A DNA stretch of 4,280 nucleotides from a virus (taxonomy: Duplodnaviria; Heunggongvirae; Uroviricota; Caudoviricetes), in the IMG/VR virus record IMGVR_UViG_2711768167_000005, positions 1 to 4,280 of that record. One strand, 5' to 3'. A model generated the notes under the pieces. That model was not told where the DNA came from. It did not search any database and worked only from the letters and a program-made list of their open reading frames with translations. Shown here piece by piece: positions 3,423 through 4,246 of this stretch. The stretch's first letter is position 1, and each line of letters begins with the position of its first letter. A program made the translations under genes and the position numbers.

Positions 3423-3671
3423 CTACCTCAGTCTCATATTGTTGTATCGCTCGTGACTCAACAGCGCCCAGGTTTGTCCCCGGTTCCTGCTCAGTAACCG
3501 CCAGTCCGGACCAACATTAATCTTGATATACCCGAATCCCTTTTTCTTCAGTTCATGGTAATTCCTCTCCCCGCGACGAAACCGGTTAACGAGGTCCACC
3601 GCCTTCCGCTGGCAGGCTGGCGGTACCCCGGGACAGCTCAGCAGACCGGGAACCAGCTCTTTCATCTTCAT
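3423..3671 (-). CDS. Hypothetical small basic protein (82 aa)
   Basis: ATG at 3671..3669 in an ATGA overlap with the stop of the 192-aa gene. AAGGAA lies about 7 nt upstream. TAG at 3425..3423. No family recognised. Confidence 0.5.
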   Translation of the reverse strand: MKMKELVPGLLSCPGVPPACQRKAVDLVNRFRRGERNYHELKKKGFGYIKINVGPDWRLLSRNRGQTWALLSHERYNNMRLR

Positions 3672-4246
3672 GACGCATTCCTTACCTGTTCAGGGCTTCC
3701 GGCTGTATGCCACCCCCTGACAGCATGCCAGACGGCCGTGAGCGGGATATTCATCTGCTCTGCACAGAGCATCATGACGTCCAGCCCGTCAGCGCTCTCC
3801 ACATCGTTAATCCCTGCTTTCTGCCACAGTCTCCAGAGTTCAGAGTTTTCATCATCGCTGAGTGTGATACCCCGCCCCGGGCGCACATCAATTCCTGAAA
3901 TACGGCGCCGTGCTGCAACGTCCACACTGGAAAGGCCAAAATAAAACGCCATGAGTTCAATCGATCCCCCCAGTGCAAGAGCGCGATCGATTCGCTGCAG
4001 GCGTTTCTGTTCAGTCCTGGCCTGCTGCAGCATGCGTACAAGGTTATTGTGGTTAATATCCAGCCGCAGCACTGACACCTCTGAATTTGACAGATAGTGA
4101 ATTTCCTCAATACTCAGCCCCTGCAGCATCTGCATTTCTTCCCGGGAAAGCCCCAGCGCTTCACAGCGGCGCAGATAGCCACTTTTGAGATCCATCACCA
4201 GCTGCATCAACAGTCCGTTGGTGGCCTGTGACAAGTTATTACTCAT
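3668..4246 (-). CDS. Hypothetical protein (192 aa), first complete gene of the array; possibly DUF2857-like
   Basis: ATG at 4246..4244 with a strong SD GGAGGTGAGGT (rev-comp of 4247..4257). TGA at 3670..3668. The domain assignment is a weak recollection and is unverified. Confidence 0.6.
   Translation of the reverse strand: MSNNLSQATNGLLMQLVMDLKSGYLRRCEALGLSREEMQMLQGLSIEEIHYLSNSEVSVLRLDINHNNLVRMLQQARTEQKRLQRIDRALALGGSIELMAFYFGLSSVDVAARRRISGIDVRPGRGITLSDDENSELWRLWQKAGINDVESADGLDVMMLCAEQMNIPLTAVWHAVRGWHTAGSPEQVRNAS

Follow-up and report, generated by a model that had tools for sequence, protein, structure and literature searches.

What are two overlapping genes, coding for proteins of 192 and 82 amino acids (aa), doing at positions 3423 to 4246 of a viral record, next to genes of the phage ea type? 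The stretch analysed here, hereafter the window, covers the first 4,280 nucleotides (nt) of IMG/VR record IMGVR_UViG_2711768167_000005 and was taken in the initial annotation for part of a prophage ea region led by this gene pair. The analysis revealed that the larger protein belongs to the DUF2857 family and the smaller one to the ParE_like family, and that the pair lies in an integrative conjugative element (ICE). With confidence a little above even, the pair was read as the last backbone stretch of the maintenance and activation operon of this ICE, in which a BisC-type switch subunit is followed by a coupled early effector of toxin fold.

Organization of the gene pair

The minus strand carries every gene of the window. 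The features of the pair, taken from the list of open reading frames (ORFs) and from the sequence, are as follows.

3668 to 4246, minus strand: 192-aa DUF2857 gene, by homology the BisC-type subunit of an ICE transfer-competence activator (ORF list and PF11198)
3423 to 3671, minus strand: 82-aa ParE_like gene (PF24732) with a putative RelE/ParE-superfamily fold, nearest to the HigB/RelE/YafQ type, and without a cognate antitoxin gene
3668 to 3671, minus strand: ATGA shared by the DUF2857 stop and the ParE_like start, for translational coupling (ORF list and sequence reading)
4253 to 4257, minus strand: GGAGG, Shine-Dalgarno (SD) sequence 6 nt before the DUF2857 ATG (4246), within the coding sequence of the upstream gene (sequence reading)
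3679 to 3683, minus strand: AAGGA, weak SD sequence 7 nt before the ParE_like ATG, within the DUF2857 coding sequence (sequence reading)
4243 to 4280, minus strand: 3' end of the upstream DUF2786/DUF7168 gene (sequence, and the full gene in a 99.9%-identical locus)

The two ORFs, their ATGA overlap, the GGAGG sequence and the basic character of the small protein had been described from the letters of the window, and all of them are present in the sequence. The small protein holds 18 lysine and arginine residues and 6 aspartate and glutamate residues, counted on its translation. The same 4-nt overlap between the DUF2857 and ParE_like genes was found in most related loci. The description of the two genes as a lead pair did not survive. 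The TGA of the upstream gene (4245-4243) overlaps the DUF2857 ATG (4246-4244), again as ATGA, and therefore the strong SD sequence sits in coding sequence. This upstream gene codes for 243 aa, with DUF2786 and DUF7168 by Pfam, in the Escherichia coli genomes that are 99.9% identical to the window over 3300-4280. The initial annotation had suggested looking beyond position 4280 for the promoter and the neighbouring genes; in these genomes the upstream side holds genes for DUF2786, ParB, DnaB-PI and ParA, and up to ParA no coding-strand promoter-like site. The consensus scan of the window and of the stretch from ParA to the pair detected no sigma-70-like site on the coding strand, although an internal promoter may escape such a scan, and terminator-like sites did not exceed the chance level. 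Because ATGA overlaps are present at both ends of the DUF2857 gene and no coding-strand promoter-like site was found, the pair is operon-internal, inside a long operon that runs from ParA to ParE_like.

The ratio of nonsynonymous to synonymous substitution rates (dN/dS) was 0.02-0.15 for the DUF2857 gene and 0.08-0.29 for the 82-aa gene. The small gene is real and constrained, and it evolves faster than its DUF2857 neighbour. Both ORFs are genuine and not due to chance, as strong Pfam matches, homologs in many genera and low dN/dS values indicate.

Genomic context of the pair

The surroundings of the pair were analysed in E. coli AR_0089, in which the locus is 99.9% identical. The operon there has the order ParA, DnaB-PI, ParB, DUF2786, DUF2857, ParE_like, on the same strand and with overlapping ends. 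The 41-kb neighbourhood starts with an integrase, tRNA-Ser, ParA, two hypothetical genes, an SPI-7-type DnaB helicase, a ParB family gene, DUF2786 and DUF2857. These are followed by the gene for a 'ParE family toxin-like protein', by ea22-like genes and pseudogenes and by an STY4528-family protein, and then by a PFL_4669-family ICE protein, topoisomerase III, SSB, PilL, TraD and a TIGR03747 ICE membrane protein. No phage structural gene was found in the 41 kb. The context is that of an ICE of the SPI-7/PAPI-1/pKLC102/ICEclc family, and the link of DUF2857 to integrative elements, which had been suggested in the initial annotation, is borne out by these backbone flanks.

The backbone common to this element and the pKLC102/PAGI-2 family comprises ParA, DnaB-PI, ParB, DUF2857, the STY4528 family, PFL_4669/AcaB, topoisomerase III, DUF3577, SSB and TraD. 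ICEEc2, SPI-7, PAPI-1/pKLC102, ICEKp2 and ICEHin1056, which form the pKLC102/PAGI-2 or ICEclc family, have these backbone genes in the same order. PMC6761156 cites ICEEc2, described from avian E. coli BEN374, as the member from E. coli. The element of the window is probably an ICEEc2-like E. coli ICE. Of 5,426 complete E. coli genomes, 119 (about 2%) have the locus of the pair on the chromosome, and 92 of these match at least 80% of the pair; many of the E. coli carriers are poultry isolates. The pap fimbrial genes and tia are found some 8-13 kb away from the integrase of the island in AR_0089.

The phage-type DNA of the window lies on the other side of the pair.

1 to 3429, minus strand: variable cargo of phage-derived ea22/eaA-like genes, outside the conserved pair, beginning right after the ParE_like stop

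At positions 1-3420, patches with 95-97% identity to ea22, eaA and 'recombinational DNA repair protein' genes of Stx-converting lambdoid phages and of P1-like phages are present. The phage DNA match of 3300-4280 is confined to 3300-3429, and no phage record matched 3430-4280 at the DNA level. Since the phage match ends at 3429, the mosaic starts right after the stop of the small gene (3423). The gene content after ParE_like varies from locus to locus, and the pair is the final backbone segment ahead of a variable cargo site. The initial annotation had suspected a prophage ea region holding an odd ICE gene, and this framing is inverted by the data, which show an ICE backbone carrying phage-derived ea22/eaA-like cargo. 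Its term chimeric element can be retained for an ICE with a phage-derived mosaic, not for a prophage with an ICE gene.

The DUF2857 protein and its relation to BisC

The 192-aa protein matched PF11198 (DUF2857) over its full length, with an E value of 5.1e-66 and 222.1 bits against a cutoff of 36.8 (residues 10-181, profile positions 2-173 of 174). The Pfam search thus settled the tentative DUF2857-like assignment of the initial annotation. In ICEclc, DUF2857 is carried by BisC. Neither BisC nor BisD by itself switches on the transfer-competence promoters and the operon of the two proteins, but the two together do (PMC7423338). BisD is a ParB-like clamp dependent on cytidine triphosphate (CTP), which loads at bisS sites and slides to promoters, and chromatin immunoprecipitation gave sharp BisC peaks at the transfer-competence promoters (PMC12409273).

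A Ralstonia element with the order alpA-parA-(small ORF)-parB-DUF2857-STY4528 was used as the proxy for BisC and BisD of ICEclc. The DUF2857 protein of the window is 34% identical over 177 aa to the DUF2857 protein of this ICEclc-type element (E 7e-36), and the E. coli ParB-family protein, whose gene is outside the window, aligns end to end with the Ralstonia ParB (35% identity, E 3e-70). The E. coli protein keeps GGNTR and ENEVR, which are of the motif types GxxR and ENxxR defined for the nucleotide pocket of BisD (PMC12409273). The long ParB-like, BisD-type gene is present upstream of DUF2857 in the AR_0089 locus and in more than 40 related loci; in many enterobacterial elements, unlike in ICEclc, the two genes have a DUF2786/DUF7168 gene between them. 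Like BisC of ICEclc, the 192-aa protein is a full-length DUF2857 protein encoded downstream of a long ParB-family gene in the same backbone, and we infer from this homology that it is a member of the BisC family with the corresponding activity. The operons differ at two further points: the DUF2857 gene is followed by the ParE_like gene here and by an STY4528/orf96323 homolog in ICEclc, and the enterobacterial operon includes a DnaB-type helicase gene, unlike that of ICEclc.

The structure of the 192-aa protein was modelled with AlphaFold2, giving ten helices at a pLDDT of 77. The fold search of this model against the PDB (Foldseek) returned no significant match, an FlhDC chain appearing at rank 47 with E 8.5, and the sequence search against the PDB gave no significant match. 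The FlhD match in Pfam was below the cutoff (19.5 bits against 27), and in NCBIfam only a sub-threshold FlhD match was obtained. In the literature, BisC is called FlhC-like on the basis of Phyre2 (PMC7423338), whereas the Pfam signal of the window protein is weak and of FlhD type; neither resemblance was confirmed by the sequence or fold search against the PDB. The defence-system search with PADLOC gave for this protein a marginal DrmC fragment match alone (E 7e-4, 43 aa), and for the 82-aa protein no match.

A DUF2857 gene with 35% identity was also observed on a plasmid of Salmonella serovar India (32-2784), where it has no ParB partner. The module there consists of an integrase, AlpA, DUF2857 and a TraR/DksA zinc-finger protein, which suggests that DUF2857 regulators may also act outside BisD-type pairs. 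By Pfam, the 'PFL_4669 family ICE protein' encoded downstream of the pair in related loci, at a distance of some 4 kb, belongs to AcaB, the family that includes the transfer activator of IncC plasmids; through this AcaB-family protein, these ICEs may have a second type of activator besides BisDC.

Family, predicted fold and conserved residues of the 82-aa protein

The 82-aa protein, which could not be recognised in the initial annotation, matched PF24732, 'ParE-like toxin domain' (E 1.6e-19, 70.1 bits against a cutoff of 24.4), and also phrog_1525. Its RefSeq name is 'ParE family toxin-like protein'. NCBIfam held no model above threshold for either protein of the pair, and no mention of PF24732 was found in the papers searched. 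Assignment of both proteins to lambdoid early functions, such as recombination or cell-division inhibition, would have spoken against the initial annotation and did not come about; the families obtained are DUF2857 and ParE_like.

The family is small. The exhaustive search of 1.84 billion proteins gave 64 cluster representatives at E <= 1e-3, and the word-indexed search gave 8 close relatives. All of the 38 aligned relatives matched PF24732, with a conserved core of approximately LKI[ND]VG..WRLLS[RK][ND].G..W.L[MS][ST]HE.YN. A24 and R58 show no variation across these 38 diverse sequences and H73 and Y76 hardly any; in a closer set of 13 sequences, E74 is likewise invariant.

The phmmer and profile hmmsearch runs of the protein against the PDB produced chance matches only. 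The AlphaFold2 model (pLDDT 76.6) has the order b-b-a-a-b-b-b-a, containing the b-a-a-b-b-b-a topology typical of RelE-like toxins. Its best Foldseek neighbours were HigB, YafQ and YoeB, then RelE, with E values of 0.07 or worse and TM of 0.4-0.5, and the ParE structures ranked under the RelE/HigB-type ones. Profile alignment by hhalign placed GYWSITVRANWRITF of the ParE_like family against GYIKINVGPDWRLLS of Proteus vulgaris HigB, with P 0.004. In this alignment the 'V.x.WR' strand motif is matched with 'VRANWRITF' of HigB. Nothing was obtained by hhalign against RelE and RK2 ParE. Homologs in some phage genomes had independently been labelled 'HigB-like' or 'plasmid maintenance system killer' by the depositors.

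The 82-aa protein shares small size, basic charge and predicted topology with the HigB/RelE/YafQ/YoeB mRNA interferases, which are its best structural neighbours. With the ParE gyrase poisons of ParDE systems it has the putative superfamily and the Pfam and RefSeq name in common, but its gene has no ParD nearby and its profile no similarity to RK2 ParE. The model and alignments are consistent, if weakly, with a RelE/ParE-superfamily fold that would lean to the mRNA-interferase branch over ParE.

Linkage and distribution of the pair

The linkage of the two genes was followed from both sides. The small protein as query gave 29 loci with a ParE_like relative at least 45% identical, and in 28 of them DUF2857 is directly upstream; these are from Salmonella, Enterobacter, Kluyvera, Leclercia, Serratia, Morganella, Brenneria, Erwinia, Mixta, Cedecea, Xenorhabdus, Proteus and Providencia. 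In the remaining locus, that of a Pantoea insect symbiont, the region is decayed. The DUF2857 protein as query showed the small gene directly downstream in Pectobacterium, Dickeya, one Klebsiella lineage, a Citrobacter plasmid and a Pantoea conjugative plasmid. The block DnaB, ParB, (DUF2786), DUF2857, ParE_like recurs in Salmonella, Enterobacter, Kluyvera, Serratia, Morganella, Xenorhabdus, Proteus, Providencia, Klebsiella, Citrobacter, Pantoea, Pectobacterium and Dickeya. The 39 genome loci of the small gene came via the 13-sequence alignment, a single narrow peptide pattern, so the family is undersampled. In Pectobacterium and Dickeya the DUF2786 gene and the ea-like cargo are both missing and an STY4528-family gene comes directly after the small gene. 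The small gene is therefore part of the backbone and not of the cargo.

The ParE_like gene was met in the enterobacterial branch only. ParB, DUF2857 and STY4528 abut without it in Pseudomonas aeruginosa pUM505, P. veronii, Haemophilus influenzae ICEHin1056, Ralstonia and one Klebsiella pneumoniae lineage. E. coli O22:H8 strain 154 (locus 3268-4040) has the same ICE backbone with ParE_like missing, DUF2857 leading straight into ea-like genes, and is a natural deletion or replacement variant. On a plasmid of Duffyella gerundensis, the 270-nt gap after DUF2857 (4582-4852) encodes MKLNDITLILKATAVASAAVCRKATGTARFFNHGQ..., which looks like the N-terminus of ParE_like. The gap is an apparent N-terminal remnant by visual resemblance alone, its hidden Markov model (HMM) match being far under threshold (E 0.87). 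An intact ParE_like copy is present on the conjugative plasmid of Pantoea agglomerans.

The same pair as in Salmonella was observed on a contig labelled Vagococcus sp. WN89Y, of the Firmicutes. The ParE_like protein is 65% identical to the query in both, and the DUF2857 gene equals that of Salmonella in length and HMM score. This occurrence is probably an assembly contamination and not a cross-phylum transfer.

Distant relatives and the search for an antitoxin

The ParE_like members at 27-36% identity were without DUF2857. A second conserved home of the family was found in islands of Salmonella, Cedecea, Pseudocitrobacter, Enterobacter and Erwinia dacicola, which have the order integrase, repressor-like gene, Rv2179c-like 3'-5' exoribonuclease, ParE_like protein of 72-85 aa and Toprim primase-like protein of 885 aa. 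Their layout is P4-like or that of phage-inducible chromosomal islands (PICI-like). Relatives were also present in 73 temperate-phage records. The small gene of Serratia phage OS31 overlaps a ParB-like gene by 4 nt in an early region near exoribonuclease, excisionase and integrase, and that of phage sortregn overlaps a hypothetical gene of 125 aa. The small gene is tightly coupled to its upstream gene in every context, and the upstream genes, namely DUF2857 in ICEs, the Rv2179c-like exoribonuclease in P4-like islands and the ParB-like gene in OS31, are mutually unrelated across ICEs, satellites and phages.

In the ICE, satellite and phage loci examined, neither flank of the small gene holds a conserved gene for a small DNA-binding antitoxin. 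The downstream neighbour is either variable or the 400-aa STY4528 gene. This lack of conservation led to the rejection of a HigA-type antitoxin downstream, in the reversed order of HigBA. The Rfam scan gave no RNA element.

Proposed mechanism and rival explanations

The proposed mechanism follows what is described for ICEclc, where the operon is silent in most cells and on only in the few that enter transfer competence (PMC7423338), and where Shi and ParA arrest the growth of the transfer-competent cells (PMC12409273). The DUF2857 protein, as the counterpart of BisC, would sit on the promoters of the ICE transfer genes. The upstream ParB-like CTP clamp, as the counterpart of BisD, would contact it and turn these promoters on, and the closing of a positive feedback loop would commit the cell to transfer competence. 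By the ATGA coupling, the 82-aa protein would be translated only along with the BisC-like protein, and most likely it would be made only in switched-on cells. There it might serve, speculatively, as an early effector holding back the growth of the host or its gene expression rather than as a plasmid-style addiction factor, and its relatives, which stand in early operons of P4-like satellites and of temperate phages, may do likewise. Such a host-restraining effector, the favoured reading, would parallel the growth arrest by Shi and ParA and the placement of these relatives. The Shi/ParA parallel is a functional analogy only: Shi/ParA are a growth-restraining factor of the bisDC operon expressed in activated cells (PMC12409273) and have no homology to the ParE-like protein, whose role here is proposed. 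The sharper form of the proposal, an antitoxin-less effector of the RelE/HigB type, for example a ribosome-dependent mRNA interferase, which is gated by the bistable BisC switch and imposes growth arrest or host shut-off on the committed donor, with an equivalent task for the family in satellites and phages, was judged unlikely.

Several observations weigh against this proposal. The adjacent bisD and bisC of ICEclc are separated here by a DUF2786/DUF7168 gene between ParB and DUF2857, and the BisC function would be carried over from relatives of about 34% identity. An arginine on strand 3 together with histidine, glutamate and tyrosine near the C-terminus are the residue types used by YoeB and HigB; R58, H73, E74 and Y76 match the HigB active-site residues only in part, and catalysis cannot be inferred from them. 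The small gene is dispensable for the backbone and an addition in the enterobacterial branch only, since it is missing in strain 154, in one K. pneumoniae lineage and outside Enterobacterales and is apparently decayed in Duffyella.

The main rival is a harmless, domesticated cofactor. A non-toxic accessory protein of RelE fold could interact with the BisC-like protein, the BisD-like protein or nucleic acid and thereby adjust the activator or the replication of the ICE, leaving the host unharmed, and this is possible though on the doubtful side. It would agree with the tight coupling to the DUF2857 gene in most enterobacterial ICEs, with the replication- and partition-type neighbours (ParB, primase, exonuclease) in all three element types and with the weak match to a toxin fold, and a harmless protein is the easiest explanation for the absence of an antitoxin gene in every context. 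The partnership with BisC is nevertheless not family-wide, as relatives stand beside unrelated upstream genes in satellites and phages, and the near-invariant polar residues R58, H73, E74 and Y76 would resemble an active site more than a binding surface. If instead the DUF2857 protein doubled as the antitoxin, the pair would be a type II toxin-antitoxin module stabilising the ICE. The ATGA overlap between a larger gene upstream and a small gene for a basic protein of toxin fold does look like an antitoxin-toxin operon, and the linkage is kept in 28 of the 29 close loci. Such a classical addiction module is unlikely, given the separate occurrence of either gene and an operon that is not constitutively expressed: DUF2857 is without the ParE-like gene in the ICEs of Pseudomonas, Haemophilus and Ralstonia and in some enterobacterial ones, ParE-like relatives occur without DUF2857, and the equivalent operon of ICEclc is silent in most cells (PMC7423338), the opposite of what addiction needs. 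The pair also lies inside a long operon in which no promoter-like site of its own was found, and in Duffyella and strain 154 the toxin gene is lost with the upstream gene intact, showing no sign of addiction.

The names given by Pfam and RefSeq would suggest a true ParE-type gyrase poison, but hhalign finds nothing against RK2 ParE and P 0.004 against HigB, and no ParD-like gene is near in AR_0089 and the related loci, which makes this reading quite improbable. Least credible of all, to the point of being nearly negligible, is that the pair stands at the head of an early-left (ea) operon in a lambdoid prophage which acquired an ICE-type gene. The Ead/Ea22-like genes downstream and the 95-97% nucleotide patches to lambdoid and P1-like phages speak for it. 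The genes upstream are same-strand ICE backbone genes with overlapping ends, the DNA of the pair is in no phage record, phage structural genes are lacking in the 41-kb surroundings, where TraD, ICE membrane proteins, topoisomerase III and SSB are encoded, and the same pair is free of ea-like cargo in Pectobacterium and Dickeya. Prophage origin was ruled out by the annotated ICE flanks together with the lack of a phage DNA match for the pair.

Phage-derived cargo of the window

The cargo site looks like a recombination hot spot between ICEs and phages. A direct repeat of 145 nt with 93% identity (738-882 and 1569-1713) encodes the common N-terminal module (M.TITKERLLTI.QWRETYGPGSNVVLPAEEAEELARI...) of two different ea-like ORFs, 469-882 and 1315-1713, both on the minus strand, and points to modular shuffling of phage ea genes. 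The minus-strand ORF at 1710-2225 codes for 171 aa and matches phrog_9263 (function unknown; E 8e-123), with a weak 'DNA repair protein' PHROG match; its listed start at 2306 is probably too far upstream. At 2227-2826, minus strand, a 199-aa Ead/Ea22-like protein shows weak matches of P-loop kinase/ATPase type at about residues 107-165, which suggests a fused nucleotide-binding module in its C-terminal half. A homopolymer of about 11 G and, after it, a T-run, both read on the minus strand at about 60-72, near the window end in apparently non-coding or degenerate sequence, could be a slippage-prone tract or an assembly artefact. In AR_0089 (17449-19527) the ea-like cargo is mostly pseudogenised, with several frameshifted or truncated ea22-like coding sequences, whereas the ORFs of the window are intact. 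The cargo decays faster than the backbone.

Significance

What was described as a lead gene pair of unknown function in a prophage turned out to be two members of catalogued families within an element of known type, and RefSeq already names both proteins accordingly. The DUF2857 gene marks the presumed master switch of a conjugative-island family that is present in about 2% of complete E. coli genomes. Work on ICEclc has established that a switch of the BisDC type decides which cells become DNA donors, and with an enterobacterial pair of BisD/BisC type the control of transfer becomes directly testable. The small gene represents a compact toxin fold without an antitoxin, conserved behind the switch gene in many enterobacterial genera and recurring in satellites and phages. 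Should the 82-aa protein hold back the host once a cell is activated, it would offer a simple case of a toxin controlled by the timing of its expression, and if it is the gated effector outlined above, of a toxin under developmental gating rather than under an antitoxin. If it is harmless, it would be another toxin fold recruited for regulation.

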